Shown: positions 46,439-64,000, numbered from the stretch's first letter. The stretch: 64,000 nt of DNA from Acidimicrobiales bacterium (GCA_044220495.1 JBGAQY010000004.1:11069-75068); one strand, 5' to 3'. Program-made: numbers and translations. The notes: generated by a model from the sequence alone, not told the origin.

Positions 46439-46513
46439 GCGGACGTGGCTCAGTGGTAGAGCACAACCTTGCCAAGGTTGGGGTCGCGGGTTCGAATCCC
46501 GTCGTCCGCTCCA
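46439..46513 (+). tRNA. tRNA-Gly (GCC)
   Basis: Cloverleaf structure: acceptor gcggacg/cgtccgc, anticodon loop cuuGCCaa, T-arm gcggg-uucgaau-cccgu, and an encoded CCA. Confidence 0.95.
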
Positions 46514-46752
46514 ATTTTTTGCCTTCTTGCGAACCCTCATCGAGGCACCTTCGCCTCAGGACGCGCTTGTCGCGTACTGGCCGCTGAAGCGGCCGTTTCC
46601 CGCCGTTGCAACGGGCTTTTACGCTCCATGCGTCGCGAGCAGGCCGATGCTTTGACGGAGGGCAGAATTTCCTTGTTAAGTCAGCGAACCCTTGGTTGCG
46701 ACTTGCGGCCGTCGCGTCGTTGTTGTGAGGCCTGGTGTTCCGAGCCGCTCGG

Positions 46753-47565: not shown

Positions 47566-48487
47566 GTCGAGTTCCGTAGAGCTGAAGCAACGCGGATTCG
47601 AGCCCAGGCTCTTCGACGAGCACGTCGACAACTGGGTACTGAAGTAGTTGCCGTAGCACCGATGCAATTTCGCTTGCGGGAACACTGATCGTGAGTCGTG
47701 AGTCTTGCCAGTGTTCGTTGCTCGCTGACCCGATGACCAGATTGGTGTGGTCGAAGTTGGGCTCGAACAGCACCGTCACGTTTCTCGTGTGTCCGTTGCG
47801 CAGGCTCGAGACTGCTTCAACAGAAATCAGTTCACCCGACTTGATAATTGCCGCGCGGTCGCACGTTTGTTGAACCTCAGACATGATGTGACTCGATAGA
47901 AGGATCGACGTTCCCTTTGCTCGCTCGGCGGCGATCAGGTCGAAAAAGATTTGTTGGATCAGGGGGTCAAGGCCTTCAGTTGGCTCGTCAAGCAACACAA
48001 CCTCGGGGTTGTGTTGAAAGGCTTGAACGATGCCAATCTTCTGCTTCATGCCACGCGAGTAACTGCGGATCGGCTTGTGCAAGTCGCGCTCGTTTAGTTG
48101 CAATTCGTCGCAGAGTGATTGTTGACGATCGCATGGCGCACCTTGCAAGTCAGCGAGCAATCGCAAGTGCTCAAGGCCGGTGAGATGATCGTAAAGGCGC
48201 AGTTCTCCCGGTAGATAGCCAAGCACTTTGAGCACTTCTTGCTCGGTCGCCGGATTGCGCCCGAGGATCGTGACGTGCCCCGAGGTTGGTCGCAGCAGAC
48301 CGGCAATACATCGAAGGGTCGTCGATTTACCGGCTCCGTTGGCACCGAGAAACCCCATTACCTCGCCGCGCTCAATCGTCAGGTCGACTTGATTGATCGC
48401 CGTGAACGTTCCAAATGTTTTCGTTAGTCGAGAGACTTCGATAACAGGTGTCATGGGTTTATGAGGTTGTGATTCAACCGTCACCAC
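47558..48487 (-). CDS. ABC transporter ATP-binding protein
   Basis: 309 aa, with Walker A (GANGAGKST), signature (YSRGMKQK) and Walker B (VLLDEPTEGLD). Confidence 0.85.
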   Translation of the reverse strand: MVTVESQPHKPMTPVIEVSRLTKTFGTFTAINQVDLTIERGEVMGFLGANGAGKSTTLRCIAGLLRPTSGHVTILGRNPATEQEVLKVLGYLPGELRLYDHLTGLEHLRLLADLQGAPCDRQQSLCDELQLNERDLHKPIRSYSRGMKQKIGIVQAFQHNPEVVLLDEPTEGLDPLIQQIFFDLIAAERAKGTSILLSSHIMSEVQQTCDRAAIIKSGELISVEAVSSLRNGHTRNVTVLFEPNFDHTNLVIGSASNEHWQDSRLTISVPASEIASVLRQLLQYPVVDVLVEEPGLESALLQLYGTRHD

Positions 48488-48505
48488 TTGACGCTAGTCG
48501 AGCGG

Positions 48506-49492
48506 TCAGCCTTGAGTCAGCGAGAGAGCTTGTTGGGCCATCACAAGCTCTTCGTTGGCAGGCACGATCTCGACTGTGAATGGTCGCAGAATGCTGAGTG
48601 AATCGACGATGCGCGCGCGAACTTCGTGAGAGTTTTCACCGATGCCGCCTGTGAATACAAGTGTGTCGACGCCACCAAGTGTGGTCGCGTACGCACCGAT
48701 GAACTGCACGACGCGATAACAGAACATTTCGACAGCAAGGCGAGCATCAGTGTCGGTGCGCTGGAGAAGATCTCGCATGTCTGGCGTGCCGGCAATCGCG
48801 GCGAGGCCAGCCTCGTGATTGATGGTGTTGGCGAGGTCGCGTGCGCCGTTGCCGTGCTCGATTAGGTACAACATCAAGCCGGGGTCGAGGTCGCCCGGTC
48901 GAGTTGCCATGACGAGTCCGCCAGCGGGAGTGAAGCCCATTGAATTGTCGACCGACTCGCCGTTGCGGACGGCCGTGACACTGCACCCGCTGCCCAAGTG
49001 AGCAATGACGCAGCGACGGGTGCTGTCTTCACCAAGGGTACGCACTACGTGCTCACAGGAAAGCCCGTGAAATCCGTAACGCCGAATTTCGGGACCAATC
49101 AAACTTCTAGGCAGGGCATAGGTGGCTGCAACATCGGGGATTGTGTGATGGAACGCAGTGTCGAAGCAAGCAACGTGAACTGCTTCAGGAAACATCTGTC
49201 TCGCTTCGTCGAGCGCATCTAAGGCTGGTGGCAGGTGCAGTGGAGCGAGCGGCGACAGCCGGTGCAGTTCTTTGATCAGTTCTTCGTCGATGACGACTGG
49301 CTTTGAGTGATTTGGCCCACCGTGAACGAGTCGATGCGCGACCACCGCTGGCGCGCGGCCAATGTGTTTCAACGCAGAAATGTCTGGATGCACGGCGCGC
49401 CCTAACTCGTTCAGGTTTGTGTCGAACAACGCTGTCTTCACAGTCGACGAGCCAACGTTGACGCACAAGATGTCGTTCATGACGACGACCAC
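48506..49492 (-). CDS. ackA: acetate/propionate kinase family protein (compact)
   Basis: Contains ILCVNVGSSTVKTALFD, AHRLVHGG, LSPLAPLHLPPAL, CFDTAFHHT, FTGGIGENS and IVPANEEL. At 324-328 aa it is shorter than typical ~400-aa AckA. The start is ATG 49492 or ATG 49480. Confidence 0.75.
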   Translation of the reverse strand: MVVVMNDILCVNVGSSTVKTALFDTNLNELGRAVHPDISALKHIGRAPAVVAHRLVHGGPNHSKPVVIDEELIKELHRLSPLAPLHLPPALDALDEARQMFPEAVHVACFDTAFHHTIPDVAATYALPRSLIGPEIRRYGFHGLSCEHVVRTLGEDSTRRCVIAHLGSGCSVTAVRNGESVDNSMGFTPAGGLVMATRPGDLDPGLMLYLIEHGNGARDLANTINHEAGLAAIAGTPDMRDLLQRTDTDARLAVEMFCYRVVQFIGAYATTLGGVDTLVFTGGIGENSHEVRARIVDSLSILRPFTVEIVPANEELVMAQQALSLTQG

Positions 49493-51828
49493 GTCCAGTC
49501 GCGAACTTCGGGCATATCTTCAAGGTGCTCGACAACAAAGCGACGGTGGTCATCGAGCTTCGCCTTGCATCGCTCAATAAACTGATCACCGTCGGCCATG
49601 GTGCGGCGCGAACGACGTACGGCTTCCATTGCCAGGTGATAGCGGCTGACTTCGTTGAGCACAACCATGTCGAACGGCGTCGTCGTAGTGCCTTGCTCAC
49701 CAAAACCGCGTACATGAAAACGCCCCGGATGTGGACGGCGATGGATGACGTGGTGCATGGCCTGCGGATATCCATGAAAGGCAAACACAACATCAGTGTC
49801 GTGGGTGAACAGTTGGGCGAAGTCTGCATCGCTCAAACCGTGTGGATGTGCGTCAGGCGCGTATAGCTTCATCAAGTCGACGACATTCACAACACGTACC
49901 TTGAGATCAGGCAGCTGGTCGCGCAATAGTTCCGCTGCGGCGAGAGTCTCCATCGTCATGACATCGCCAGCGCAACCAAGAATGACGTCAGGCTCACCGT
50001 CGTCATTCGACGCCCACTGCCAGATGCCCGCTCCCGCTGCACAATGTGCAGTGGCAGAGTCGATATCGAGGTATTGGAGCTGTGATTGTTTGTCAATCAC
50101 CATCAAGTTCACGTAATCAGTGCTCCGCAAGCAATGGTCAGCGACGCTGAGCAGGCAGTTGGCGTCAGGCGGAAAGTACACACGCGCAACCGAACTCCTC
50201 ATCGACATCACTACATCAATGAGTCCGGGGCCTTGGTGGCTAAAGCCGTTGTGATCGTTACGCCAACAGGTTGATGTCAGCAGAACGTTTAGCGATGCAA
50301 CTGGAGCGCGCCACGGCACGTTGCGCGCTTCTTCGAGCCATTTTGCGTGTTGCACGGTCATCGACGCCGACACCATTGCAAACGCTTCGTAGGTGGCGAA
50401 TACGCCGTGGCGACCGGTGAGCAGATAACCCTCAAGCCATCCTTCGCAGAGGTGCTCGCTCAAGACTTCGAGCACGCGTCCGTCATTTGATTCAAAGTCG
50501 TCGGTGTCTAGTACTGGAAGCATGGTCATACGGTTCTCGGTCTCGAACACTGAGCCGAGCCTGTTTGACAGAGTTTCATCGGGGCAAAACAACCGAAAGT
50601 TCGCCTCGCGTGCGTTGTGCGCAAAAGTGTCGCGCAGCATCTCGCCAAATTGCCGCGTCGATTCACGGTGTACGGTGCCCGGCGATTCGACATCGATCGC
50701 ATAGTTCTCATAGGGCGGCAACTTGATCGGCACGCGAACTCGCCCGCCGTTTGCTTGCGGCAACGCGCCCATTCTCTTGTCGCCAACCGGTGCAAGTATT
50801 TGTAGACGTTTAACAAGGGTGCCGTTGTCGTCGAAGAGTTCTTCAGGACGGTAACTGCGCATCCACGACTCGAGCATTTGCAGATGCTCGATGTTGTCTT
50901 TGACGCCCGAGAGCGGCACTTGATGTGCTCGAAATGTGTCTTCGACTTGTACGCCGTCTACCGTGTGTGGGCCTGTCCATCCCTTGGGGGTGCGCAGAAT
51001 GATTGCCGGCCATGCAATATCGCGAGTGTCTCCATTGATGCGCGCTCGGTGTTGGATCGCTCGAATGTCTTGGTGACATGTGTTGAGCGTTTGCGAAAAG
51101 GCAGCGTGCACAGAGAGCACGTCCTTACCCTCGACGAAATGAGGGGCATATCCTTGTGCCTCGAAAAATTGCCGCAAACGGTTGTTAGACCAGCGACCCA
51201 TCACCGTCGGGCCAGAGATCTTGTATCCGTTGAGATGCAAGATCGGTAGAACGGCGCCGTCGCGCGCGGGGTTCAAGAAGTCAACGCTCTTCCACGAAGC
51301 GGCGAGCGGACCAGTCTCGGCCTCCCCATCGCCGACGACACAGGCCACGAGTAGGTCGGGGTCGTCGAACGCAGCGCCGAAAGCATGAACGAGCGCGTAA
51401 CCCAACTCGCCACCCTCATGGATTGAGCCGGGAGTGGGAACGCTGACATGACTCGGGATGCCGCCTGGTGCTGAGAAGCGACGTATTAAACGAACGAGCC
51501 CAGCATTGTCTTGACTGACAGTGGGGTAGACCTCTGAGTAGCTGCCTTCGAGGTAAGTGTTGGCGACGATGGCAGGGCCGCCGTGGCCGGGTCCGGTTAC
51601 ATATAAGACCTTGCTGTCAGTGTCGTTAATCAGCTTGTTGAGGTGAACATAGACAAGATTGAGGCCCGGCGACGTGCCCCAGTGGCCGAGCAGGCGGGGC
51701 TTGATGTGCTCGGCTCGCAGCGGTTGCCGTAGTAGCGGGTTGTCTTGCAAATAGATCTGGGCAACGGTCAAATAGTTGGCTGCGTTCCAATATTCGATGA
51801 TCTCGTCGAGGCTGGTCTCTTGTTTCAC
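49477..51828 (-). CDS. xfp: xylulose-5-phosphate/fructose-6-phosphate phosphoketolase
   Basis: 783 aa, with LLGHWGTSPGLN, the signature HEGGELGYAL and GDGEAETGP (ThDP binding). Confidence 0.9.
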   Translation of the reverse strand: MKQETSLDEIIEYWNAANYLTVAQIYLQDNPLLRQPLRAEHIKPRLLGHWGTSPGLNLVYVHLNKLINDTDSKVLYVTGPGHGGPAIVANTYLEGSYSEVYPTVSQDNAGLVRLIRRFSAPGGIPSHVSVPTPGSIHEGGELGYALVHAFGAAFDDPDLLVACVVGDGEAETGPLAASWKSVDFLNPARDGAVLPILHLNGYKISGPTVMGRWSNNRLRQFFEAQGYAPHFVEGKDVLSVHAAFSQTLNTCHQDIRAIQHRARINGDTRDIAWPAIILRTPKGWTGPHTVDGVQVEDTFRAHQVPLSGVKDNIEHLQMLESWMRSYRPEELFDDNGTLVKRLQILAPVGDKRMGALPQANGGRVRVPIKLPPYENYAIDVESPGTVHRESTRQFGEMLRDTFAHNAREANFRLFCPDETLSNRLGSVFETENRMTMLPVLDTDDFESNDGRVLEVLSEHLCEGWLEGYLLTGRHGVFATYEAFAMVSASMTVQHAKWLEEARNVPWRAPVASLNVLLTSTCWRNDHNGFSHQGPGLIDVVMSMRSSVARVYFPPDANCLLSVADHCLRSTDYVNLMVIDKQSQLQYLDIDSATAHCAAGAGIWQWASNDDGEPDVILGCAGDVMTMETLAAAELLRDQLPDLKVRVVNVVDLMKLYAPDAHPHGLSDADFAQLFTHDTDVVFAFHGYPQAMHHVIHRRPHPGRFHVRGFGEQGTTTTPFDMVVLNEVSRYHLAMEAVRRSRRTMADGDQFIERCKAKLDDHRRFVVEHLEDMPEVRDWTWSSS

Positions 51829-51882
51829 GTCGCGATCATGTCGCGGATGAACCGGGCTTGCTGCGCAAGCGCCGCTACCGAC

Positions 51883-52155
51883 TTAGAGGCCGAGAAATGG
51901 TTCTCGCGGACGCCGCCGAGCGTTGCGAGCTCTCGTTTCTTCAATCATGTCGATCATCTCGGCCGCCAAATCGATCGGGCCCTCCGTGGCTACTTCGAGG
52001 CTGGCGTCTGAGGAGCGGTGCTCGTCGGATCCGGTCGCCGCAATTTCGGGTTGTTCACTCAAGGGAGTCTCCACGGTCGTGTAGTCGAGGTGATGGCCAA
52101 AGGCCGGCTGGAACAACGGTATCGGCCGACCTGGCCCACGGCAACGGTTGCTCAA
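51883..52155 (-). CDS. hypothetical acidic small protein (weak call)
   Basis: 90-aa ORF whose ATG overlaps the ArdC-like stop by 4 nt. Third-position GC is not clearly better than in the other frames (about 68% vs 68% and 54% over 50 codons). Confidence 0.25.
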   Translation of the reverse strand: MSNRCRGPGRPIPLFQPAFGHHLDYTTVETPLSEQPEIAATGSDEHRSSDASLEVATEGPIDLAAEMIDMIEETRARNARRRPREPFLGL

Positions 52156-53189
52156 AGGCTCATTGCTGCCTCGTTGTGAGTGGATTCCGCGAGAGCGGCC
52201 ATTTCGGCGTCGAGATCGTCGGTTGATTCGTGTGTTTGTTCAACGCCGCGACCGAGTCCGAGGATGTAGTTAGCTGCTTTTTGCCCAGCGGTTGCGGCGA
52301 GGGCAATTGCCTTGGGGTCGTTGCGCAACACCTGTAGCCAGTTCGCCAAATAGTCCGCATGATGCAGTGTTGGTTGATCTTCGATTCCCGTAGTCGCGCA
52401 CAAGAATGCCGAACTGAGTTCAGCGATCAGTTCTTCTTCGGCGTAACTCGTGCTGCCAAAGCGTCCTCCTGTTGCACGACCCACGCGACGATCGTTCGAC
52501 GTCGAATGCGAAAGTTCGTGAAACATTGTGCTGTAGAAGCGGTCAGCTGACGGGAACGCGTTCATTGGTGGCGTCACGATCATGTCGTCAGACGGCGAGT
52601 AAAACGCCCTGTCGATTTCTTGATGACGAATAGTCAGCCCGTCGTTACGCATGGCGGCGATGAGCCGCTCGGCGATGTCAAGTCGTTCGTGTTCGGGTCG
52701 GTTCGGCGGCGCCCACTTGTAACCATCGACGACGGCTGCATTGAAAACACAGAAGCCGGTGGGTACACGTTTGGTTCTCGGGGTGCTGTCGTCGCTCAGT
52801 GACGGCAACCTGCGTTCGCGTGATGGCGTCGAAGTTGTGCGACTGCGACGCGATGTCGAGCCTGTCGCTCCATCGCGAGGCTTGACATCAACCCACCGGA
52901 TCAAATGGACCCCTGCACCTTTTGCTTCACCGTTGCTTTTGAGCTTGTAGCCAGCATCGTGCCACTGCTTGAACGTTGCCCAGACGGGAGCCTCATAGCC
53001 ACGAGACCCAGCAACGAGTGACAGCAGCAGCTGGTTGAGCCCGTGGTACGGATTATCGGTTGTTGCGTTGAAATGTCCTTTGGTCATTACTGACCACGGC
53101 TTTCGCCAGCCGTCGGGATCGGCAATTCCTTGTTCGATCAGTTGCACTAGCTGACCAGTAACTGATGTGTAAATGTCGTCGGCTTTCAT
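52152..53189 (-). CDS. ArdC-like antirestriction protein (ssDNA-binding N-domain + zincin metallopeptidase)
   Basis: 345 aa. The N-terminal region is PWSVMTKGHFNATTDNPYHGLNQLLL...WATFKQW and the C-terminal HExxH motif is MFHELSHST. A Ser/Thr/Arg-rich linker (GATGSTSRRSRTTSTPSRERR) separates them. Confidence 0.7.
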   Translation of the reverse strand: MKADDIYTSVTGQLVQLIEQGIADPDGWRKPWSVMTKGHFNATTDNPYHGLNQLLLSLVAGSRGYEAPVWATFKQWHDAGYKLKSNGEAKGAGVHLIRWVDVKPRDGATGSTSRRSRTTSTPSRERRLPSLSDDSTPRTKRVPTGFCVFNAAVVDGYKWAPPNRPEHERLDIAERLIAAMRNDGLTIRHQEIDRAFYSPSDDMIVTPPMNAFPSADRFYSTMFHELSHSTSNDRRVGRATGGRFGSTSYAEEELIAELSSAFLCATTGIEDQPTLHHADYLANWLQVLRNDPKAIALAATAGQKAANYILGLGRGVEQTHESTDDLDAEMAALAESTHNEAAMSL

Positions 53190-53445
53190 GGCGGGTCCTA
53201 TCGAGTTGTCGCTTCGAGGCGGAACGTATGCCCGTCGTGTTTTCGGAAAAAAATTTCATGTTTACCGAGGTTCCACAGTGCGTCTCGACACGAGTGAGAT
53301 GACACGTAAGACAATCCGTGTTCCGCAACGCGGTTGACGAATCGACATCCGCTAACAGGTTGCAATCAGCGCATATGTCATTTTCGGGCGTCACGCTGAG
53401 TCAGGTTTTCTCATACGTAACCGCTGCGGGTCGATAGAACTTGCG

Positions 53446-55077
53446 ATGTTTTTGGCGCAAGGTTTTTCGACGTTCAAGCGAATCGCAGTCGTTGCGGTGG
53501 TCGCCGCGATCGTGAGTGTGATGTTGCCGTCGAGCATCGTGCGTGCGGCTGACAACTACGTCGGTTCGGCGATGCGCCCAAATGGTGATGGTTACTGGCT
53601 TACAACGGCTACTGGGTTTGTCACGGCGTCGCCCGGCGCGCCGTTCCATGGCGACCTGCGTCGAGCGTCTCTCAACCGTCCCGTAGTCGCGATGGCGGCG
53701 ACAAAGACGGGCAACGGTTACTGGTTGGTCGCCAGTGATGGAGGAATCTTCAGTTTCGGGGATGCCGCTTTCTACGGATCTACTGGTGCAATTCAGCTGA
53801 ACAAGCCAATAGTTGGGATGACGGCGACACCTTCGGGTCGCGGTTATTGGATGGTTGCTAGCGACGGAGGAATCTTCAGCTTCGGCGATGCCGCTTTCTA
53901 CGGATCAACCGGTGCTATCCGTCTCAACAAACCCGTCGTTGGCATGTCGGCTGCGGCGGATGGCCTTGGCTATTGGCTCGTGGCCACTGATGGCGGAATT
54001 TTTAGTTTTGGATCATCGCGATTCTTCGGATCAACCGGTGCGCTCGACTTGAATCAACCAATTGTTGGCATGACGACTACAGCCAACGGTTCTGGCTACT
54101 GGTTGGCTGGCGCCGACGGAGGCGTGTTCAGTTTTGGCGACGCGCAGTTCCGCGGAGCGACGGCCGATGGTGATGCTGCACGCGCAATCGCAATCTTGCG
54201 CGACAGCAACGGCGGTTACTCGTTGATACGCGCCGATGGTTCGGTTGATCAACGCGCCGTTGGCGTGGCTGTTGGCACACCTGCTGTAACACCCGGCGCC
54301 GAGGCTGCCGCGCCGACAACAAGTGTGCCGCCCGTGATCGGCTCGCCAACGACGACCTCGCCTGTTGTCAGTTCTCCGCCAACCACAGTCCCATCGCCGA
54401 TCTCGACAGCTCCGACCACCACTGCGCCGACGGGTCATCCGCTCGGTTGGGTGCTCAAAGCACAAGACGATTTCTACGGAACCGCTCTTGCCTCGCGCTG
54501 GGCTGTGTACGACGGGGCGGGAACTGCAGGCATTGGCATTCGTCGTCCCTATGTCGTGTCAGTGAGCGACGGTGCAATGCACATCAACGCGCGTGACTTG
54601 GTGACGGGCGGAATCTGCTGGTGTCTCGGAGGCGAAGGCAGTCAGACGTACGGCAAGTGGGAGATTCGAGCTCGCATGGATAACGGCAAGGGTTACGGTC
54701 CTGCGATCTTGCTGTGGCCCGACTCAGAACGCTGGCCCATTGATGGCGAGATCGACATTGCTGAAATGTCGGAGCCCTATCGCAATCAAACGCATTTCAC
54801 ATTGCACTGGGGCGCCAACAATTCGCAGATCCAACACACTGAGGTTGGTGACTTCACGCAGTGGCACACCTACGGCGTCGACTGGCAGCCGGGCTACATC
54901 AAGTACTACCTAGACGGCGTGTTGAAGTACACCAACGTCATGCCTGCAGCGATCCCCACAAACCCGATGCATCTTGCGCTACAAGTCGACGCCGGTGACG
55001 GTCGCTGGATGAACGCCCCCGACCCGGGTGTGACGTCGGGACTTCATGTCGACTGGGTGAAGATGTACCTGCCGTAA
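53446..55077 (+). CDS. secreted protein: ~6x 42-aa GYW...DGGIFSFGDA repeats + Pro/Thr linker + GH16 glycoside hydrolase domain
   Basis: It has a signal peptide (...SSIVRA/ADN). Repeats with period 42 aa span aa 47-267. The linker is PVIGSPTTTSPVVSSPPTTVPSPISTAPTTTAP. The GH16 catalytic motif is GEIDIAE (ExDxxE). Confidence 0.8.
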   Translation: MFLAQGFSTFKRIAVVAVVAAIVSVMLPSSIVRAADNYVGSAMRPNGDGYWLTTATGFVTASPGAPFHGDLRRASLNRPVVAMAATKTGNGYWLVASDGGIFSFGDAAFYGSTGAIQLNKPIVGMTATPSGRGYWMVASDGGIFSFGDAAFYGSTGAIRLNKPVVGMSAAADGLGYWLVATDGGIFSFGSSRFFGSTGALDLNQPIVGMTTTANGSGYWLAGADGGVFSFGDAQFRGATADGDAARAIAILRDSNGGYSLIRADGSVDQRAVGVAVGTPAVTPGAEAAAPTTSVPPVIGSPTTTSPVVSSPPTTVPSPISTAPTTTAPTGHPLGWVLKAQDDFYGTALASRWAVYDGAGTAGIGIRRPYVVSVSDGAMHINARDLVTGGICWCLGGEGSQTYGKWEIRARMDNGKGYGPAILLWPDSERWPIDGEIDIAEMSEPYRNQTHFTLHWGANNSQIQHTEVGDFTQWHTYGVDWQPGYIKYYLDGVLKYTNVMPAAIPTNPMHLALQVDAGDGRWMNAPDPGVTSGLHVDWVKMYLP

Positions 55078-55181
55078 TAGGGAATGTGCGCCGCAATGAC
55101 GGCGTACGGCCCGAATGACGACCGATTTCTGGTTACACTCGCCGAGTCAGGGATTTCGCTGCGTGCGTCTTCCATTTATTT

Positions 55182-55256
55182 GGCGGCGTAGCCGAGTGGT
55201 TCAGGCAGGGGCCTGCAAAGCCTTGTACACGGGTTCGAATCCCGTCGCCGCCTCCA
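55182..55256 (+). tRNA. tRNA-Cys (GCA)
   Basis: Acceptor ggcggcg/cgccgcc, anticodon stem ggggc/gccuu with loop cuGCAaa, T-arm acggg-uucgaau-cccgu, discriminator U and an encoded CCA. Confidence 0.95.
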
Positions 55257-55314
55257 TATTGTTTGGCTTGTACACGGGTTCCCGAGTTCCATGGCCGCCT
55301 CCATATTGTTTGGC
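55223..55314 (+). repeat. tandem duplication of the tRNA-Cys 3' half (att-like scar)
   Basis: R1 (55223-55267) is ttgtacacgggttcgaatcccgtcgccgcctccatattgtttggc. R2 (55268-55314) is ttgtacacgggttcccgagttccatggccgcctccatattgtttggc. The flanks are identical and the T-arm is diverged in R2. Confidence 0.85.
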
Positions 55315-55454
55315 CTTTACGTACTTCTCAGCGTTTGTCGCGAAAGGGACGTTAGGCCGGGGTGGCTTCGCCGCCCAACGGCTATTACGTTCCATTCGCA
55401 GTGAAGCCGTCACTGCTGAATTGTCCGTTGGTCTGATCCGAAGTCGCGTGGGTT

Positions 55455-57917
55455 TTGGTCGGGTTTGTGCCCTGGTCGTACCGTGCTTCGGTGCCTTCTC
55501 AAAACCCGGAACTCGATGCAATTCTGAACGGCGAATGCAGCGCTCGCGAAGGGGTCGCCGCTCTATTTGGCAGCGGATCAGTAAACCTCGTGTCTGCTGT
55601 CGACCAATTCTTGAGTTCGTCGCCGAGCGACCTCGACCACGCAACGTTGCGTGTTGTGGCTGCAGCAGCGCCGTACTTCCACCCAAATCAAGTTGCAGAG
55701 TTGATCAGGCGAATGCCGGTCACCGGCGTGCAAATGAAAGTGGCGCCAGTTCATATACCGGAGCTCTCGGCCGCCTTTGGTGAAATCATTGGGCGCTACA
55801 AACCTGACACTCGCTTCTCGCTTGTCAGTGATCTCATCCACACCCAAGTGGCCGAGACGATCGACTTGGTGCCAAGTGCCAGCATGACCGAACGAGGTCG
55901 CCTCGTGCTTGCTGAACTTCTTGCGTCTCGAGCAAAGCAGGGTGGCTGGACCGCCAAGCGCGACGTCGTGCGACACAAGTTTTCGACCCCGGCGATTTAT
56001 GCAGACGTTGTGGGGGAGTTTTGTCGCCGAGGCCCACGGATCGATGCCGATACTTACGCGCGGACCTTCAAAGACCTTGCCAGCAGTCGCCATGCTGACG
56101 ATCACGCGCGTACGCGATTGTTCGCGAGCGCACTAAAGGTCGCTAACACGCCGGAGCTGTTCTCCTTGCTCAACTCGATCACTCGTGGCGTGCCGACCGA
56201 GTTGCTCACCAAGGCCGTGCTGACAGCGCGCGCAAAAGGTTTCAAGTGTGACGGCGTGAACGACGAGCTTGCCTCCCGCGTCGACGCGCCATCACATGTT
56301 GTTCGCTACATAGCCACGGTTGGTCGCGTACCTGCGCTCATGAACATCTTGCGGCGCAACGACGTTTCGCAAGCAACAGTTCGCATTTCCTCCGAGCGCC
56401 TCGCCAACAAGGTTGGACTGACCGAGACCATGCGCAGGGCCTTGGTGCGCGAACGTCTTACGGCGATCGTGGAACCCGATGACAGTCGAATGCCCGAGTC
56501 GACAGCAGTGGCTCACATACCGCTGGCTTGGCGAGACTTTCTGATCAGAATTTCGAGCCCAACATTGCTCGCACAGTTTGCAACCCAGGAATCGTTGGGA
56601 CGCCCGTACGCGCTGACGCACATCAACACGCCTCAAGCCGTACAAGTAGAAGCAATTTCCCAGGGTGGGGAGAAGCTAGCCAACTGGGTGTGTTCTGCTA
56701 TCGACATAGACGCGACCCTGCTCGATAAGGCGATCGCAGCGGCGAGTCGCGAGGGTCTGGAGCGCGTGGCGAACCGAGTTGATGTAACCGATGCACAACT
56801 AAGTGTGGTGGCTAAAGCGTTGAGCCGCCGCAAAGAGCTCAACACTGAACGCAAGCGAGCCATTCTGTCGAACGCAAACGTGGGCCGCGATCTTGTTATG
56901 TCGCTCATCACGCCAGCGTTTGTGGCCCAAGCAGCTCGGCCTTCGAGTGTGTTGGCAGCTGAGTATTTTGAGCAGGTCCAAGCTGAGATGGCTGTGTCTC
57001 GCAACCGTGCTCACTATGCAGAAGAAGCGACACGACTGGTCGAAAACCTAAGTCTGAAATCGTACGGTGGTGCCTACGCAGTCACCGACGCTCAACGACT
57101 CTTTCGGTACTTCGACGAGGGCGATCGCGAGAGAGTTGGCGCTGCACTTCGTGGCAACCCTCGAGCTGTCGCCGAAGCGTTGGCGGCGGGAGATCACGAG
57201 GCAGCGTTGCGTAGTGCGCCTGAACGTTATGCATTTATTGCGGGCCTAGGTCTACTCGATAAGCGCGTTTGGCGCTTTGCCACGGCATCGCCTTTCCGTC
57301 GCTCGGCTGCCTGGCTTGCTTGTCAGCCAGATGCGCCTGCGAGCGAGTTTCAGCATCTTGCTGCTGAAGCAGTTGACACCACAATAGAGATGGGTCGCAA
57401 GTTAGCTGCGACCGTTCAGTACCCCAACGATGAAAGCAACATGCGATGGCAGCAATTGCCCAACAAGAGTGACCTTCCGTTCAAAGACACCGACGCGCGA
57501 CGCTTGACTCGCTCGATGACCGCTGGTGGGTTGACAGGGACGTTGATCAGCTCGCCGCGGCAACTAAGGGCACTTGCCTTGCGCATGGGCAACTGCCTTG
57601 CTGTCTACGAGAGTTCGCTCAGTTACGGACATTCAATTGCTGTCGCGTTTGAAGACCCGACCCAAAGCGACGTGCACGTTGCCATGTGGGATACGCGGCA
57701 TGTCCATGAGACTCAGCAACTCACACTCCGCCATCTTGAGTCGAAGTATGAGCAGCACACCTATCCACCTGAACTGAAGCGAGAATTGCGCAGATTGGTC
57801 ACAGAGATCAATCGCAACCTTCGCGACGGAGTTGTTGAGCCAGTCGTGACTGCTGACAAGATTTCGCTGCCCACCAGTGCGCGCAGCGGTCAAGTCAACT
57901 TGAGCCTTGGCGCATGA
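55455..57917 (+). CDS. large helical-repeat protein with PcfJ-like C-terminal region
   Basis: 820 aa and predominantly alpha-helical, rich in Ala/Leu/Arg. The C-terminal LISSPRQLRALALRMGNCLAVYESSLSYGHSIAVAF resembles the PcfJ motif (L..EG..M.HCV..Y), with Asn replacing His. Recognition is by eye only. Confidence 0.45.
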   Translation: MVGFVPWSYRASVPSQNPELDAILNGECSAREGVAALFGSGSVNLVSAVDQFLSSSPSDLDHATLRVVAAAAPYFHPNQVAELIRRMPVTGVQMKVAPVHIPELSAAFGEIIGRYKPDTRFSLVSDLIHTQVAETIDLVPSASMTERGRLVLAELLASRAKQGGWTAKRDVVRHKFSTPAIYADVVGEFCRRGPRIDADTYARTFKDLASSRHADDHARTRLFASALKVANTPELFSLLNSITRGVPTELLTKAVLTARAKGFKCDGVNDELASRVDAPSHVVRYIATVGRVPALMNILRRNDVSQATVRISSERLANKVGLTETMRRALVRERLTAIVEPDDSRMPESTAVAHIPLAWRDFLIRISSPTLLAQFATQESLGRPYALTHINTPQAVQVEAISQGGEKLANWVCSAIDIDATLLDKAIAAASREGLERVANRVDVTDAQLSVVAKALSRRKELNTERKRAILSNANVGRDLVMSLITPAFVAQAARPSSVLAAEYFEQVQAEMAVSRNRAHYAEEATRLVENLSLKSYGGAYAVTDAQRLFRYFDEGDRERVGAALRGNPRAVAEALAAGDHEAALRSAPERYAFIAGLGLLDKRVWRFATASPFRRSAAWLACQPDAPASEFQHLAAEAVDTTIEMGRKLAATVQYPNDESNMRWQQLPNKSDLPFKDTDARRLTRSMTAGGLTGTLISSPRQLRALALRMGNCLAVYESSLSYGHSIAVAFEDPTQSDVHVAMWDTRHVHETQQLTLRHLESKYEQHTYPPELKRELRRLVTEINRNLRDGVVEPVVTADKISLPTSARSGQVNLSLGA

Positions 57918-58918
57918 CACCAAAATCTGCGACCTCACGCTTTCGAGACACCGAGGCACTGCGTTCGTATTACCGCGATGGCGGCGACGAGTCGCTTCCC
58001 GAACGCCAGCGTTCGTACCTGCGCAAGCTCGCCGAAATGGACGTGACCTTGTCGGCTAATGGCGATTGGACACTTATCCAACATGGTCGCGGTAACTGGC
58101 AGGTCGTGCCCGCCGGCACCGCACTGATGCTACGGGCCGACCAGGTCGACGTTGGTTCAGTGGGTTCTAAGACTGCTGCTGTCAAGTTGGCAGCCTGGCT
58201 TAGCGACAACGTGCGGGTGGTCGATGGCACTGCTGTCGATTGGTCGAGTCCCTCGGTGTATCACGTCGTTGAGTCGCTGAGGGCGTTTGGCAATGAGCAA
58301 GAACTGGCGCTCATTGCTGCGCGCGCGAGATTTGACGAGCTCACGAACGAGAAGTTCAGTCACGCCGGTGATGTGTTCAAGCGCATCGGCAGACTGTCGT
58401 CACGCGAAGACCTTCCTGAAGGACAGAAGTATGCCGACGAACTGCGATCGGGCGACGCTTTGGTCACTCGTGGCAACAAGCTTGTACGCATTGCGCAAGT
58501 CGAAGAGCGCGCGGGGTATTACTTCGTGACAACGGGCGCTGGCGAGCGAACTCAGTTCAGTCGCAATGCGCCAGTTCCTGCAGTGAACGCCGCTGACTTA
58601 GTCGTTTGCGATAACGACGGGCAACGTATTGGCGAATGGGTGTCTGATAACGAACTCAAAGCAGGCGACGAGATCACGTTTGTGATTAGCGGAGAGCGTA
58701 TTGATCCGATGAATCGCTATGGCTGGCGCAAGTATGCGCGTATCGATGTGCTCGATGTGTGGTTGCCAGAACGTGTCGTCAGGCTCGACTCTCTTGAACG
58801 ACCAACAGCGAAACTCAAAGTAACGACAGAACGAGAAGTTCAGTCTGCGGTAACACCTGCGCAACGGCCTTCAGCGGCTCGAGAATCAGTTGGCGAGATT
58901 CAGCGCACGCTGTTCTAA
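57914..58918 (+). CDS. hypothetical protein, translationally coupled to the 820-aa gene
   Basis: 334-aa ORF whose ATG overlaps the upstream stop (ATGA). No motif recognised. Confidence 0.55.
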   Translation: MTPKSATSRFRDTEALRSYYRDGGDESLPERQRSYLRKLAEMDVTLSANGDWTLIQHGRGNWQVVPAGTALMLRADQVDVGSVGSKTAAVKLAAWLSDNVRVVDGTAVDWSSPSVYHVVESLRAFGNEQELALIAARARFDELTNEKFSHAGDVFKRIGRLSSREDLPEGQKYADELRSGDALVTRGNKLVRIAQVEERAGYYFVTTGAGERTQFSRNAPVPAVNAADLVVCDNDGQRIGEWVSDNELKAGDEITFVISGERIDPMNRYGWRKYARIDVLDVWLPERVVRLDSLERPTAKLKVTTEREVQSAVTPAQRPSAARESVGEIQRTLF

Positions 58919-58924
58919 CAAGAG

Positions 58925-59854
58925 CTAAGCGACGTCGGCGTCGGGCTTGGGATTGTCGGCGGGCACCCGCGGTGACGACAGTCCGGCCTTCAATCCTGAC
59001 GCAACGGTGGTGCGCGTTTCGCGGTCGTTGAGGCCAATGGCGATGCCGGTATCGATAAGTGCCATCTCGACTGCGTCGTAGTCAAGTGACCCGCCGCCGA
59101 CAATTTGCCCAAGTTTGAATGCGCAACGGTTGAGCGTGAAGTTGCGGGCACCGACAGGCGCTCGATGCAACTCGTCGAGTTCGTCTTCGAGAGCACTCAA
59201 CGCCCAGCGATTGCTCGCACGCACCGGACGACGAGGAACGATTGACGGGCGCGGCTGCTCTTGTTCTTTGAGCAGTTCGAGTAACCAACTGGGCAAGTCA
59301 GCAAGTGGCTCATCTGAAGTGATGTGGTAGCGGCGTCCGCTGGCATGCAGGCTTGGGGGCGCAATTACGTAACCACCGTCGCCGCGAATGTCGAGCCCGG
59401 GGCCAAGTCGACGTCCGGCGTCGTTGGGAATGCGCACGTTTGGGTGCGCGAAATAGAAGTGCAGTCCGTCTGAGCCCGTTGCAACCGTAAACGTATGAGG
59501 CAGCGCACCGTATTGCTCACGCAACTTCTGCAAAGAGTCGAGTCCACCGTGTGCCGGATCGACATCAACGACAACGAACCCACTCTCGGCTCCGCTTCTA
59601 ATACCGACATTCGCGTGCGGCCAACGCTTCCACCATCGTTTGATCTGCTCGCGATCGGTAACCGCTGACTTGAGACCATGTGCGACGATCGGGTGCTTCG
59701 ATGGCGAGGCGCAATCCGAAAATCCGCACGAACAATTGCTGGCGCCCTCTTTCACGACGTGACACGGAAAGACAGCCCAGCCGCGTGCGCCATAAGTAAG
59801 TGCTGCCTGCAGGGGGGTTTTAAAGTGCGGGGCCCTGGTTTGGCGGTCAGACAT
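58925..59854 (-). CDS. bifunctional DNA primase/polymerase (Prim-Pol, AEP superfamily)
   Basis: 309 aa, with GWAVFPC, KHPIVAHGLKSAT-like, the catalytic VVVDVDPAHGG motif and GLHFYFAHP. The C-terminal helical region is typical of plasmid/ICE Prim-Pol proteins. Confidence 0.8.
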   Translation of the reverse strand: MSDRQTRAPHFKTPLQAALTYGARGWAVFPCHVVKEGASNCSCGFSDCASPSKHPIVAHGLKSAVTDREQIKRWWKRWPHANVGIRSGAESGFVVVDVDPAHGGLDSLQKLREQYGALPHTFTVATGSDGLHFYFAHPNVRIPNDAGRRLGPGLDIRGDGGYVIAPPSLHASGRRYHITSDEPLADLPSWLLELLKEQEQPRPSIVPRRPVRASNRWALSALEDELDELHRAPVGARNFTLNRCAFKLGQIVGGGSLDYDAVEMALIDTGIAIGLNDRETRTTVASGLKAGLSSPRVPADNPKPDADVA

Positions 59855-59978
59855 AACGAGGATCGATTGTCGCTGGCAGGCTCGACATAACCCAATTTCG
59901 TCACACCTCGACGTAGCCGACGCCGGAATATCTCGATGTCACCGCCTGCGGTCACGTTGGTTGGCTACGTTGTGAGGA

Positions 59979-62111
59979 ATGAAAGTTTGGCCTGGTCAGG
60001 CGCTTCCGCTCGGCGCTCATTTTGATGGTGTCGGCACCAATTTCTCGTTGTTCTCAGAAGTTGCTGACCGTGTTGAGCTCTGCCTGTTCGACGACGCAGG
60101 CAATGAGACGCGAATTGACTTGCCTGAGGTCACGGCCTTTCAGTGGCATGGGTACGTGCCCAACGTTGGTGTTGGTCAGCGCTACGGATTCCGTGTGCAT
60201 GGTCCGAGCGACACCTCGCAAGGTTTGCGTTGCAATCCAAACAAGCTGTTGCTCGATCCGTATGCAAAAGCGGTTGACGGCGAAGTGTCGTGGGACCCCG
60301 CCCTGTTTAGCTACGACTTCGGTGCGCCCGACGGCGCTCTCAACACAGACGATGACGCTGCGTTGATGCCGAAGTCGGTCGTTGCGAGCCCGTGGTTCGA
60401 CTGGGACATGGATCGTCTGCCGCGCACGCCGTGGGCAAGCACCGTTCTCTACGAGGTGCACGTGAAGGGTTTCACGCAACTGCACCCGGGCATTCCAGAA
60501 GAGCTGCGTGGAACTTATGCGGGGCTTGGTTCGCCTGAAGCGATCGAACACTTCAAGTCGCTTGGTGTTACGGCAATTGAGCTGTTGCCTGTGCATCAGT
60601 TCATTCATGACGAGACCTTGTTTCGCCGTGGGTTGCGCAACTATTGGGGTTACAACTCGATCTGTTACTTAGCGCCGCACAATGCGTACAGCTCGGCAGG
60701 GCAACGCGGACAGCAAGTACAAGAGTTCAAGCAAATGGTGAAAGAACTTCATCGGGCGGGCATCGAAGTGATTCTCGACGTGGTTTACAACCACACGGCC
60801 GAGGGCAATCATCTCGGCCCGACGTTGTCTTACAAGGGCATTGACAATCCGTCGTATTACCGCTTGATGCCCGATCACCCGCAGTACTACATGGATTACA
60901 CGGGCACTGGCAACAGCCTCAACATGCGTAGCCCGCACGTGTTGCAGATGATCATGGATTCACTGCGTTACTGGGTTACAGAAATGCACGTCGACGGTTT
61001 CAGGTTCGACTTGGCAGCAACGCTTGCCCGCGAACTTCACGATGTCGATCGGCTGTCAGCCTTCTTTGACCTGATTCAGCAAGACCCCGTGGTGAATCAA
61101 GTGAAGCTGATCGCCGAGCCTTGGGATGTTGGCGAAGGTGGTTATCAAGTCGGCAACTTCCCGCCGCTGTGGTCTGAGTGGAACGGTAAGTATCGCGATT
61201 GCGTACGCGACTTCTGGCGTGGTGAAGATCAGACACTGGCCGAGTTTGCGTATCGCTTCACGGGCTCGTCAGACCTTTACGAAAGCACGGGGCGTCGTCC
61301 ATCGGCGTCGATCAACTTCATCACCGCTCACGACGGCTTCACGCTTGCTGACCTTGTGTCGTACGACCAAAAGCACAACGACGCGAATGGTGAACAGAAC
61401 AAAGATGGCGAGTCGCACAACCGTTCGTGGAATGGTGGCGCTGAGGGGCCGACCGACGATCCCGAAATCAACGCCACGCGGCAACGTCAACAGCGCAATT
61501 TCTTGGCGACTCTGTTTTTGAGCCAGGGCATTCCGATGATCTTGGGTGGCGACGAGTTCTCGCGCACGCAACGCGGTAACAACAACGCGTACTGCCAAGA
61601 CAACGAAATCTCGTGGTTCGACTGGACGTTGGTGGCCGACAACGAAGCACTCACGCAATTCGTTGCGTCGCTGGCGCGTCTGCGCGCGAAGCATCCAGTA
61701 CTTCGGCGTCGCAACTTCTTTCAAGGCCAACCGGTGTTTGGTGAAAGCGTTAGCGACATCGCTTGGATGAAGCCCGACGGTTCATTGATGAAAGACGAAG
61801 ACTGGACCAAAGGCTTCGCCAAATCCATCACCATCTTCCTGAACGGCGATCAGATAGAAGGTCTCGATGAGCGCGGCGATCGCGTGCTCGACGACAGCTT
61901 TCTCGTGATGTTCAACGCCCACTACGGATCACTGAGCTTTTCAATTCCCGACGACCGTTTCGGCATGCAGTGGGAAGTGATGTTTGATACGGCAGTCGGC
62001 GTATTTGAACGGCGCCAGGGCAGTGGCACCACGCTCAAGCCCGGTGACCAGATCGAGCTTGAAGACCGATCATTGGTGCTTTTGCGGCGGGTTGAACGCT
62101 CCAGCGACTAG
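59979..62111 (+). CDS. glgX: glycogen debranching enzyme
   Basis: 710 aa of the GH13 family, with VYEVHVKGFT, DVVYNHT, GFRFDLA, AEPWD and FITAHDGFTL motifs. Confidence 0.9.
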   Translation: MKVWPGQALPLGAHFDGVGTNFSLFSEVADRVELCLFDDAGNETRIDLPEVTAFQWHGYVPNVGVGQRYGFRVHGPSDTSQGLRCNPNKLLLDPYAKAVDGEVSWDPALFSYDFGAPDGALNTDDDAALMPKSVVASPWFDWDMDRLPRTPWASTVLYEVHVKGFTQLHPGIPEELRGTYAGLGSPEAIEHFKSLGVTAIELLPVHQFIHDETLFRRGLRNYWGYNSICYLAPHNAYSSAGQRGQQVQEFKQMVKELHRAGIEVILDVVYNHTAEGNHLGPTLSYKGIDNPSYYRLMPDHPQYYMDYTGTGNSLNMRSPHVLQMIMDSLRYWVTEMHVDGFRFDLAATLARELHDVDRLSAFFDLIQQDPVVNQVKLIAEPWDVGEGGYQVGNFPPLWSEWNGKYRDCVRDFWRGEDQTLAEFAYRFTGSSDLYESTGRRPSASINFITAHDGFTLADLVSYDQKHNDANGEQNKDGESHNRSWNGGAEGPTDDPEINATRQRQQRNFLATLFLSQGIPMILGGDEFSRTQRGNNNAYCQDNEISWFDWTLVADNEALTQFVASLARLRAKHPVLRRRNFFQGQPVFGESVSDIAWMKPDGSLMKDEDWTKGFAKSITIFLNGDQIEGLDERGDRVLDDSFLVMFNAHYGSLSFSIPDDRFGMQWEVMFDTAVGVFERRQGSGTTLKPGDQIELEDRSLVLLRRVERSSD

Positions 62112-62132
62112 ACCACGCAGAGGGGGATTGCG

Positions 62133-64000
62133 ATGACGTTTGAAGACTTCACCTCAGTGCCGCTTGTCGCGACTTATCGGGTTCAGTTTCGTGCGGAGTT
62201 TGGTTTCGCGTCGGCGGTAGAAATTGTTGACTATTTAGCCCAGCTCGGCGTCAGTCACCTGTATGCATCGCCATATTTGCAAGCGACGCCGGGCAGTACT
62301 CACGGATACGACATCGTTGATCACGGTCATGCAAACGATGAGCTTGGTGGTGAAGTCGGGCGCAAAGCAATGGTCGACGCATTGCGTGCGAATGATCTCG
62401 GTCAAGTGCTCGACATTGTGCCGAACCACATGGCGATTGGCGGACGCAACAACAAGTGGTGGTGGTCGATTTTGGCGAGTGGGCGCGAGAGCCCTTACTG
62501 CGACTACTTCGACATCGATTGGCGAGCCCCCGAAGAGCTTGGCCGTGATGTCGTGCTTATGCCTGTACTCGGCGACCACTATGGAAAAGAGCTTGACCGT
62601 CGGCGGCTTCAGCTCGGCAAGCATGACGACGAGGTTGTTGTTCGCTATTTCGAGAGTGAGTTTCCGATCAGCACACGCTCACTCCAAGAGATGAGTGTCG
62701 ACGTGTCTGAGGGTGGGCTTGCCGCGCTGAACGATGATCCGACCGCGCTCGACGCTTTGTTGGAGCGCCAGCACTACCGGCTTTGTTACTGGCGGGTGGC
62801 TGACTCAGAACTCGACTACCGCCGCTTCTTTGACATCAACAGTCTGGTCGGTTTGCGAGCTGAGCGCGACGACGTTTTCGAAGACACTCACCGGCGTATT
62901 CTCGATTGGATTGACGAGGGGAGTGTCAGCGGACTTCGTATTGATCATGTTGACGGTCTCGCTGATCCGCTTGGATATTTGCGTCGACTGCGCAGCCGCG
63001 TCGGCGAGCGGCAGGCCTTGTTCGTCGAGAAGATTCTTGAGTCAGGCGAACGTCTGCCAGCCTCTTGGCCTGTAAGTGGCACGACGGGCTATGACGCGTT
63101 GAATCTCATTGATGGTTTGTTTATCGAGCCCACGGCGGCCAGTGGGCTCGCCGACTTCTATCGGACGTTTACCGGCAACGAGTTGTCGTGGCGTCAACAC
63201 GTGCGCGATGGCAAGCGGTATGTGATCGAGCGCTTGCTTCGTAGCGACGTGGCGCGCGTGACCGACGTGCTGATGCGCTTTTCTAGGTCGCGCCGCCAAT
63301 ATCGCGATTACACGCGCGACCAGCTTCACGTTGCGCTTTGCGCGTTGCTGGTCGAGCTGCCTGTGTATCGCACTTACACCGCGCCGTCAGGCAATCAAGT
63401 CACCCGCATCGATCGCGAGATCGTGCGCCGCGCTGTCGAGCAAGCAAAACACGACAGCACAGTCGAACCCGATCTACTTGACCTGCTCGATGATTTGCTG
63501 GCGCTGGCATTTGACGACGCAGTTGCGACTGAGTTCGTTGTGCGCTTTCAGCAACTATCGGGCCCAGTGATGGCGAAAGGTGTTGAAGACACGGCGTATT
63601 ACCGCTATCTGAGTTTCGTCGCCCTCAACGAGGTGGGCGGAGATCCGGGCGAGTTTGCCGTACGCCCCGACGACTTTCATGAGGCCTGCGCAGAGCGTCA
63701 ACGTTCGTCACCGTCGGCAATGAATGCATCAACAACTCACGATACAAAGCGCAGCGAAGACGTTCGCTGGCGCCTTGCAGTACTCACCGAGATGGCTGAC
63801 AAATGGACGACAGCGGTTGCGCGCTGGTCAGCAATGAATGAGCGCCATCGCCGCCTTCGTGATCCCGCTGATTCAGCTAGCGAGCGGTTTCCTGATCGCA
63901 ACATGGAGTATCTGCTGTATCAAACGCTCGTGGGCGCATACCCAGTATCGGTTGAGCGTTTGACTGAATACGCGATCAAGGCGGCGCGTGAAGCGAAACA
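62133..64000 (+). CDS. treY: malto-oligosyltrehalose synthase (partial; continues past right edge)
   Basis: The frame is open from ATG 62133 to the window end. Contains ATYRVQFRAEFGFASAVEIVDYLAQLGVSHLYASPYLQATPGSTHGYDIVDH and later GLRIDHVDGLADP. It is absent from the track because there is no stop in the window. Confidence 0.85.
   Translation, partial: MTFEDFTSVPLVATYRVQFRAEFGFASAVEIVDYLAQLGVSHLYASPYLQATPGSTHGYDIVDHGHANDELGGEVGRKAMVDALRANDLGQVLDIVPNHMAIGGRNNKWWWSILASGRESPYCDYFDIDWRAPEELGRDVVLMPVLGDHYGKELDRRRLQLGKHDDEVVVRYFESEFPISTRSLQEMSVDVSEGGLAALNDDPTALDALLERQHYRLCYWRVADSELDYRRFFDINSLVGLRAERDDVFEDTHRRILDWIDEGSVSGLRIDHVDGLADPLGYLRRLRSRVGERQALFVEKILESGERLPASWPVSGTTGYDALNLIDGLFIEPTAASGLADFYRTFTGNELSWRQHVRDGKRYVIERLLRSDVARVTDVLMRFSRSRRQYRDYTRDQLHVALCALLVELPVYRTYTAPSGNQVTRIDREIVRRAVEQAKHDSTVEPDLLDLLDDLLALAFDDAVATEFVVRFQQLSGPVMAKGVEDTAYYRYLSFVALNEVGGDPGEFAVRPDDFHEACAERQRSSPSAMNASTTHDTKRSEDVRWRLAVLTEMADKWTTAVARWSAMNERHRRLRDPADSASERFPDRNMEYLLYQTLVGAYPVSVERLTEYAIKAAREAK

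Follow-up and report, generated by a model that had tools for sequence, protein, structure and literature searches.

The locus described here occupies positions 51883–59854 of a 64,000-nt stretch of DNA from an Acidimicrobiales bacterium (GCA_044220495.1 JBGAQY010000004.1:11069-75068), the whole of which was analyzed and is referred to below as the window. Its genes form two separate patches around a tRNA-Cys gene. On the 5' side is a lone gene of the ArdC family, parted from the tRNA by a host-like gene for a secreted protein with a glycoside hydrolase family 16 (GH16) domain. Directly on the 3' side is a packed block of three genes, in which an apparent operon encoding an 808-aa solenoid/PcfJ-like protein and a 334-aa orphan open reading frame (ORF) is met by a convergent, lone primase/polymerase (Prim-Pol) gene (Table 1). 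A preliminary description, made from the sequence alone, had treated the genes on both sides of the tRNA as one module and offered two explanations, a decayed element whose surviving genes are retained or a non-canonical mobile module. We find that, as it stands, the interval does not constitute a mobile element. With about an even chance of being right, it can be read as two distinct patches whose genes came from mobile elements long ago and are today retained without being mobile, the block 3' of tRNA-Cys probably being what remains of a stripped element.

Table 1 Features of the interval and of its immediate flanks, in window coordinates
Feature	Position	Strand	Basis
90-aa ORF (doubtful as a gene)	51883-52155	-	mechanical ORF listing; overlaps ArdC-gene stop by 4 nt (TTGA)
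ArdC-family gene	52152-53189	-	Pfam, PHROG, PDB alignment
543-aa secreted repeat protein with C-terminal GH16 domain	53446-55077	+	PF00722
tRNA-Cys(GCA)	55182-55256	+	ARAGORN; Rfam RF00005, 64.3 bits
Degenerate head-to-tail copy of tRNA-Cys 3' part	55267-55314	+	original at 55222-55267
808-aa solenoid/PcfJ-like gene	55491-57917 (GTG start; 820 aa if TTG 55455)	+	distant relatives, AlphaFold2 model
334-aa orphan ORF	57914-58918	+	open frame overlapping 808-aa gene by 4 nt
Prim-Pol gene (309 aa)	58925-59854	-	PF09250, PHROG
Phosphoketolase (xfp)	49477-51828	-	XFP domains; NCBIfam phosphoketolase
GlgX	59979-62111	+	TIGR02100, 1014 bits

A solitary ArdC gene

By its domains and motifs, the gene 5' of the tRNA is an unambiguous member of the ArdC family. 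The single-stranded DNA (ssDNA)-binding N-domain and HExxH peptidase motif that had been read from the sequence are both borne out: the product matches the Pfam families ArdcN (PF08401; 1.9e-19, 70.5 bits against a cut-off of 22.6) over residues 5-113 and MPTase-PolyVal (PF18818; 5.9e-40, 136.7 bits), and over its full length it matches the PHROG anti-restriction family phrog_7245 (1.3e-66). Alignment with the ArdC protein of plasmid R388 (PDB 6i89; E = 1.2e-32) pairs the N-domain with 6i89 residues 8-97 and places three motifs in register, namely hELsH (the HExxH of MFHELSH), yaEEEliaE (the EE of the glutamate helix) and adYlanWL (the Tyr). The key residues of R388 ArdC are H201/E202/H205, E228-E229 and Y255, which provide the metal ligands, the catalytic Glu, the glutamate helix and a substrate-stabilising Tyr (PMC7213743). 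Judged by these motifs, the gene is predicted to be catalytically intact.

Relatives of the protein are overwhelmingly found on mobile DNA, with 2821 plasmid records matching at ~35% identity, 1597 of them predicted to be conjugative. The family's usual surroundings, the leading or establishment region of a conjugative element, are missing: the gene adjoins the phosphoketolase and GH16 genes, and no transfer genes were detected in the interval or its immediate flanks. The gene stands alone.

The 90-aa ORF that overlaps the ArdC gene had been put forward as possibly coupled to it, but is unsupported as a real gene. It has no homologue and no match in Pfam, NCBIfam, PHROG or PADLOC, and its exact sequence is missing from a 15-billion-protein collection; its GC content at the three codon positions (GC1/GC2/GC3) follows a pattern compatible with coding.

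Between the ArdC gene and tRNA-Cys lies the gene for the 543-aa secreted protein, whose GH16 domain matches PF00722 at 1.2e-16 and whose N-terminal half contains three tandem 126-nt (42-aa) repeats (53671-54048). Homologues of the repeat domain occur on an Acidimicrobiaceae metagenome-assembled genome (MAG) contig (L054) and on a metagenome contig whose taxonomy is not known (L086). The gene is host-like, not mobile-element-like. Neither this gene (53446-55077) nor the tRNA-tail duplication described next (55267-55314) was mentioned in the preliminary description.

A duplicated tail behind tRNA-Cys

The 3' part of tRNA-Cys, together with an 11-nt trailer, is repeated head-to-tail immediately behind the gene, and the two copies abut without a spacer and with a one-base overlap. 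The copy is exact for 15 nt, diverges over the T-loop and the 3' T-stem (four substitutions and a 2-nt insertion) and is then exact for a further 21 nt, such that all differences are restricted to an 11-13-nt T-loop/T-stem segment. Shuffling gives a chance expectation of 0 for this repeat, and contig L122, which comes from a second sample, has the same junction.

When an integrase inserts DNA into a tRNA gene, it usually leaves a partial repeat of the tRNA 3' end, and the duplication looks like an attachment-site scar. No third or distal copy was found anywhere in the window, either when up to 3 mismatches were permitted or by local alignment. A metagenome scan with the 21-nt core resembling an attachment (att) site returned one chance match, which lies inside an unrelated gene and has no tRNA.

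The 808-aa protein and its relatives

The first gene of the 3' block had been described as an 820-aa protein with a PcfJ-like C terminus. Its true start is most likely GTG 55491 (808 aa) rather than TTG 55455 (820 aa). The N terminus that results (MPSQNPELD) lines up with those of homologues (for example, VSDVNPELE), and an independent gene caller run on a contig from the Logan collection gives exactly the 808-aa product. Exact look-ups of the 820-, 734- and 334-aa versions of the two ORFs drew no protein record, whereas the 808-aa version did. The NCBI call of 734 aa is too short, since it loses part of an N-terminal domain that is conserved and modelled with confidence.

Neither the whole protein nor its C-terminal 300 aa matches any Pfam family at E<=10, PcfJ (PF14284) included. 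When 1.84 billion representatives were scanned exhaustively with HMMER, only 36 relatives emerged, of 430-1150 aa and at 25-31% identity. In their alignment (A1), the N-terminal domain is conserved, the helical middle varies and in many members resembles LRV/HEAT repeats by score, and the C-terminal domain has an MGNCL motif and the invariant residues W665, L668, M711, N713 and C714. Word-indexed homologue searches with the 820-aa ORF, the 334-aa ORF and A1 returned only the query itself, and a PDB sequence search with A1 gave nothing meaningful. Seven of 35 family members match PcfJ below threshold (best 1.4e-4, 22.1 bits against a gathering cut-off of 25), and these matches map to the same C-terminal α/β domain.

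An AlphaFold2 model built with A1 has a mean predicted local distance difference test score (pLDDT) of 76, rising above 90 for residues 11-290 and 590-790. Searched with Foldseek, it matches only HEAT/ARM solenoids in the PDB. In BFVD, it matches an LRV phage protein (3.5e-5), the PcfJ protein of Listeria phage LP-064 (E = 8e-4, probability 0.99) and, more weakly than 8e-4, six further PcfJ-like phage proteins (probability up to 1.0). As the search used the complete multidomain model, the template modelling (TM) scores of the PcfJ fold matches are low, at 0.1-0.2 on the query. Thus, relatives and predicted fold together make a distant PcfJ-like relationship of the C-terminal domain plausible, whereas by Pfam's own gathering score the protein falls outside PcfJ. 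Essentially no literature on PcfJ was found.

It had been suggested that profile searches of the two 3' ORFs might uncover a cryptic recombinase. None was found by profile in either protein, and a cryptic recombinase in the 808-aa protein was rejected, as its only fold matches in the PDB are of the HEAT/ARM type; the model contains no recombinase, nuclease or ATPase fold.

Relatives of the protein occur in tandem, two or three paralogues in a row, on every contig carrying them that was fetched: L082-L084, L086 and L087 (SRR32051204), and L088 (NCBI MAG GCA_017884265.1), with a GC content of 59-62%. Full-length paralogues within these arrays are 26-41% identical. The neighbouring genes are of the Pyr_redox, Ldh_2, ThiF/rhodanese and His_Phos_1 families, and one array contig (L086) also bears a homologue of the repeat domain of the GH16 protein. 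No Prim-Pol or relative of the 334-aa ORF is adjacent to any of the homologue arrays. The setting of the family looks chromosomal and lineage-specific, not plasmid-like.

An orphan reading frame

The 334-aa ORF begins within the stop of the 808-aa gene (ATGA), and a gap of 6 nt separates its end from that of the convergent Prim-Pol gene. The overlap suggests that the first two genes may be translationally coupled. That the ORF overlaps its neighbour and has no known family had been noted previously, and every search agrees: it matched only itself in 5.8 billion clusters, and nothing in Pfam, NCBIfam, PHROG, PADLOC, the PDB or viral contigs. By these searches it is a true orphan. A single-sequence AlphaFold2 model was unusable (pLDDT 36). 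In other strains the product is 371 aa long owing to an in-frame insertion of 111 bp (37 aa) at window position 58750/58751; this insertion (L001 6720-6830; L124 3418-3531) contains no obvious repeat or known element.

A Prim-Pol without a helicase

The Prim-Pol assignment, originally made on the VVDVDPAHGG motif, is supported by a match to PF09250 across the entire profile (positions 1-158 of 158; 4.7e-51, 173.8 bits against a cut-off of 22.8) and by seven PHROG primase/polymerase families. The protein belongs to the archaeo-eukaryotic primase (AEP) superfamily and has a C-terminal helical extension. Its motifs were identified by eye in the translation as VVDVD (the DxD, within VVDVDPAHGG), GLHFYF (His) and LDIRGDGGY (Asp). 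A PDB sequence search gave nothing meaningful.

Full-length relatives annotated 'bifunctional DNA primase/polymerase' are present at 30-35% identity in 344 plasmid records, mostly from Streptomyces but also from Pseudonocardia. Matches were also found in 591 phage records, and IMG/VR contigs hold relatives at 40-49% identity. On a 13.5-kb Streptomyces plasmid (L085), the homologue lies beside TraA/TraB, a recombinase and a P4-type primase/helicase. In the window there is neither a fused nor an adjacent replicative helicase; the protein is only 309 aa long, and its gene lies between the 334-aa orphan and glgX and is transcribed divergently from the latter. Domain and motif mark it as a clear member of its family, though one without the usual genomic setting.

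ArdC, PcfJ and Prim-Pol had been listed together as typical plasmid genes and genes of integrative and conjugative elements (ICEs). This is true of the ArdC and Prim-Pol families; the 808-aa protein is not a typical plasmid gene product, having no sequence match in a set of 72,556 plasmids and none in 50,697 phages.

Tests of mobility and composition

The locus fails the recombinase, delimiting-repeat and transfer-gene tests that define an ICE, an actinomycete ICE (AICE) or an integrative and mobilizable element (IME). Across the interval and its immediate flanks, no site-specific recombinase (tyrosine, serine or DDE) was found in any ORF of at least 200 aa, and searches of Pfam, NCBIfam and PHROG revealed no integrase, excisionase, relaxase, coupling protein, TraB/FtsK or other transfer gene, in agreement with the preliminary description, which had seen no int, xis, FtsK/TraB-like or relaxase gene. 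Recombinases were sought by profile in all interval ORFs and by fold in the 808-aa protein only, and none was found. No direct repeats flank 51883-59854, and PADLOC gave no defence-system match. The interval is 92.5% coding with gaps of only 256, 104, 234 and 6 nt, which leaves no room for pseudogenes or remnants of mobility genes.

It had also been noted that the GC content is not obviously different from that of the flanks. This stands: GC is ~58% throughout the window, and in GC, GC3 and codon usage no gene of the interval lies outside the range spanned by ~40 other window genes. Rfam, promoter and terminator scans added nothing beyond the two tRNAs.

Variation among strains and relatives

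Four Logan contigs from two samples (L001, L122, L123 and L124) are 98.7-100% identical to the window; together they cover 49732-55276 and 55331-64000, and all carry the genes. ArdC is identical in two strain contigs. Against L124, the 808-aa gene has one synonymous and no non-synonymous difference, the 334-aa gene eight synonymous and six non-synonymous differences (ratio of non-synonymous to synonymous polymorphism (pN/pS) 0.25) and Prim-Pol five and four (pN/pS 0.26). The 111-bp indel is in frame and leaves the 334-aa ORF open. Although the difference counts are small, they point to constraint rather than decay. The density of single-nucleotide polymorphisms (SNPs) against L124 is ~10x higher in 58448-59739, which comprises the 3' half of the 334-aa gene plus Prim-Pol, than in the 808-aa gene (pS 2-3% vs 0.16%). 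This contrast suggests recombination or some other separate history of the sub-segment.

The contigs break at the tRNA-tail repeat. L122 and L123 end at window positions 55276, 55222 and 49732, and L124 at 55331 and 60007; both left-hand contigs stop at the same base inside xfp. These breaks probably reflect strain variation in the assembly graph. Ends at 55222/55276/55331 and 60007 were considered as the ends of an island and rejected, since L001 continues across the right junction and several strains are present in the samples.

In 185,579 species genomes, the best relatives of GlgX are only 62-70% identical and come from MAGs of Actinomycetota, Acidimicrobiia and Acidobacteriota, so the genus of the window is missing from that collection and the lineage is poorly sampled. 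Clustering at 90% identity leaves every protein tested, housekeeping enzymes included, as a singleton. The ArdC, 808-aa, 334-aa and Prim-Pol genes are all absent from 80 GlgX loci of other lineages (all at or below 70% identity). In one Acidimicrobiales MAG (L043 7080-12136), glgX is preceded at a distance of 2.8 kb by a tRNA-Cys in the opposite orientation, the two being separated by genes for a CopD-like protein and a glycogen phosphorylase; this arrangement would fit, if weakly, an old tRNA-Cys/glg linkage whose content varies.

Flanking genes

The interval had been placed between xfp-ack and glgX-treY, and profiles confirm the identity of these flanks. Phosphoketolase and an acetate/propionate kinase lie on the left, and GlgX, followed by TreY (TIGR02401, 944 bits), on the right. 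The acetate kinase ORF (48506-49492) is short, its 328 aa covering positions 89-356 of the 405 in the ackA model at 288 bits against an NCBIfam cut-off of 293, and it overlaps the xfp stop by 16 nt. A tRNA-Gly(GCC) is situated 8.7 kb upstream of tRNA-Cys, with an ABC-2 transporter pair, ack and xfp in between (46439-51828). At the transporter pair, GC falls to 0.535 (47-48 kb).

Origin of the locus

We propose that the block 3' of tRNA-Cys is the residue of an element once integrated into the 3' end of the tRNA. The degenerate tandem tail would be the scar of site-specific integration, and the integrase, excisionase, transfer and replication-helicase genes would have been cleanly deleted together with the distal attachment site. 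The ArdC gene on the other side of the host-like GH16 gene would be a separate relic. An origin from mobile elements is argued for by the relatives of ArdC and Prim-Pol, which are overwhelmingly on plasmids and phages, by the distantly PcfJ-like C-terminal domain of the 808-aa protein, and by the position of the block directly 3' of tRNA-Cys next to a tail duplication that is not due to chance. Differing gene content near the GlgX loci of other lineages and in L043 counts in the same direction. Selective retention is suggested by pN/pS values of ~0.25, the identity of ArdC between strains, the open 334-aa frame and host-like codon usage. Of the two explanations first offered, a decayed element with retained genes is therefore the better one, given genes that are intact and tightly packed, their pN/pS values and a tRNA-tail copy on the side of the block; the reading as a single element is not supported.

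Several observations weigh against this proposal, to which we give no better than an even chance. As no distal copy of the attachment site exists, no boundary can be drawn and the repeat delimits nothing; replication slippage explains abutting tail copies as easily as integration does. The host-like composition gives no hint of a foreign origin. No genome with an empty site was found, the available relatives being too distant and all strain contigs carrying the genes. Finally, the 808-aa protein has no plasmid or phage match and its family elsewhere forms arrays that look chromosomal, so its gene may be a lineage gene instead of cargo.

In the most serious alternative, nothing was ever integrated here: the genes would be accessory or lineage-specific chromosomal genes, gained separately long ago from families that are common on mobile elements, and the tail a slippage duplication. 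Such a history fits a composition and codon usage that match the rest of the window, the purifying selection on the genes, tail copies that abut head-to-tail with a one-base overlap, and the lack of a distal repeat, integrase or pseudogene remnant. It also fits an 808-aa family that lies in tandem arrays beside metabolic genes and has no plasmid or phage match. However, it must then accept that three mobile-element-enriched families, and one or two orphans besides, cluster by chance within 8 kb of tRNA-Cys. The tail differences are confined to the T-loop and T-stem, where uniform drift after slippage predicts otherwise, and the 334-aa/Prim-Pol part has an indel and an approximately tenfold SNP density. 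Raised SNP density and indels are often seen in accessory DNA. On balance, we consider separate acquisition possible but the less probable account.

A single decayed conjugative or integrative element spanning tRNA-Cys, from the 90-aa ORF to Prim-Pol, and possibly having brought the tRNA along, is improbable. ArdC, PcfJ-like and Prim-Pol functions are generally known to co-occur on conjugative plasmids and ICEs, and all are found here within 8 kb. Yet the host-like GH16 gene parts ArdC from the tRNA, insertion into a tRNA 3' end places DNA downstream of the tRNA only, and no repeats flank the interval. Moreover, the combination of ArdC, Prim-Pol and the 808-aa family is absent from all 33 fetched ArdC or Prim-Pol loci and from the fetched 808-family loci. 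The same intervening gene and the same one-sidedness of tRNA-targeted insertion also argue against a single module lying to either side of the tRNA, as first described.

The least probable account, which lacks positive support, is that of a functional non-canonical module. It could be an island without an integrase that is mobilised in trans and uses Prim-Pol to initiate replication, or a defence or anti-defence system of an undescribed kind. In its favour, the genes are intact and under constraint, the 808/334 pair shares a 4-nt overlap with Prim-Pol abutting, tandem and fast-diverging 808-family paralogues resemble conflict-related genes, and in one sample contigs break at both ends of the block (L124 = 55331-60007). 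Against it, there is no PADLOC match, no distal or delimiting repeat, no recombinase by profile in any ORF or by fold in the 808-aa protein, whose model also lacks a nuclease or ATPase fold, and no adjacent Prim-Pol or 334-aa relative in the homologue arrays, while L001 runs through the Prim-Pol/glgX junction and strain SNPs better explain the contig breaks.

Present-day roles can be suggested for the genes. ArdC may act as an ssDNA-binding, DNA-dependent metalloprotease, Prim-Pol may work as a primase or repriming polymerase without its original replicon, and the 808/334 pair may form a scaffold protein complex. There is a slim chance that this pair, perhaps together with the helicase-less Prim-Pol, constitutes an undescribed functional unit, such as a conflict/defence or establishment module, as opposed to inert cargo. 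Such a unit, again on a slender chance, would belong to a very rare family that is diversifying as tandem paralogue arrays in little-sampled uncultured organisms.

As a remnant the locus is fairly ordinary, and it serves as a cautionary case for annotation, in that an ICE should not be called from ArdC, Prim-Pol and PcfJ-like labels beside a tRNA. One by-product is the corrected model of the large ORF (GTG 55491). Should selection truly maintain ArdC and Prim-Pol as solitary chromosomal genes, they would be candidates for domesticated roles in DNA repair or damage tolerance. The rare solenoid/PcfJ-like family, which could give a handle on the function of PcfJ-type domains, is the sole part of the locus with some potential for novelty; the rest would represent a genomic-island remnant of a known kind.

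Comparison with known systems

In layout, the locus is similar to degenerate tRNA-linked islands and AICE remnants of the pSAM2/SLP1 type, sharing with them a block directly 3' of a tRNA and a partial repeat of the tRNA 3' end. Unlike AICEs, it lacks integrase, excisionase, TraB/FtsK translocase, Nudix and regulator genes as well as a distal attR, its repeat copies abut, and its composition is fully host-like. Its plasmid-type Prim-Pol replication gene is also reminiscent of small Streptomyces TraB plasmids.

The C-terminal α/β domain of the 808-aa protein may be a distant relative of PcfJ (PF14284) of the Enterococcus plasmid pCF10 and of large-phage proteins, and with its ~800 aa and helical N-terminal part the protein is built like some phage PcfJ proteins. 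It differs from PcfJ proteins in having no Pfam match, a conserved N-terminal domain of its own and relatives in tandem paralogue arrays.

Similar to the bifunctional primase/polymerases of the pRN1 type (PF09250), the window Prim-Pol has a full AEP domain with a DxD motif (VVDVD) followed by His and Asp motifs. Unlike them, it has 309 aa and no helicase either fused or adjacent, the counterpart on the Streptomyces plasmid (L085) having a P4-family primase/helicase next door.

The closest parallel to a characterized protein is found for ArdC. Compared with ArdC of the IncW plasmid R388, the window protein, known here from its sequence, is chromosomal, solitary and ~35% identical, and has a ~40-residue Ser/Thr/Arg-rich insertion in the linker, whereas the two-domain architecture, the metal ligands, the catalytic Glu, the EE pair and the Tyr are all kept (PDB 6i89/6sna; PMC7213743).

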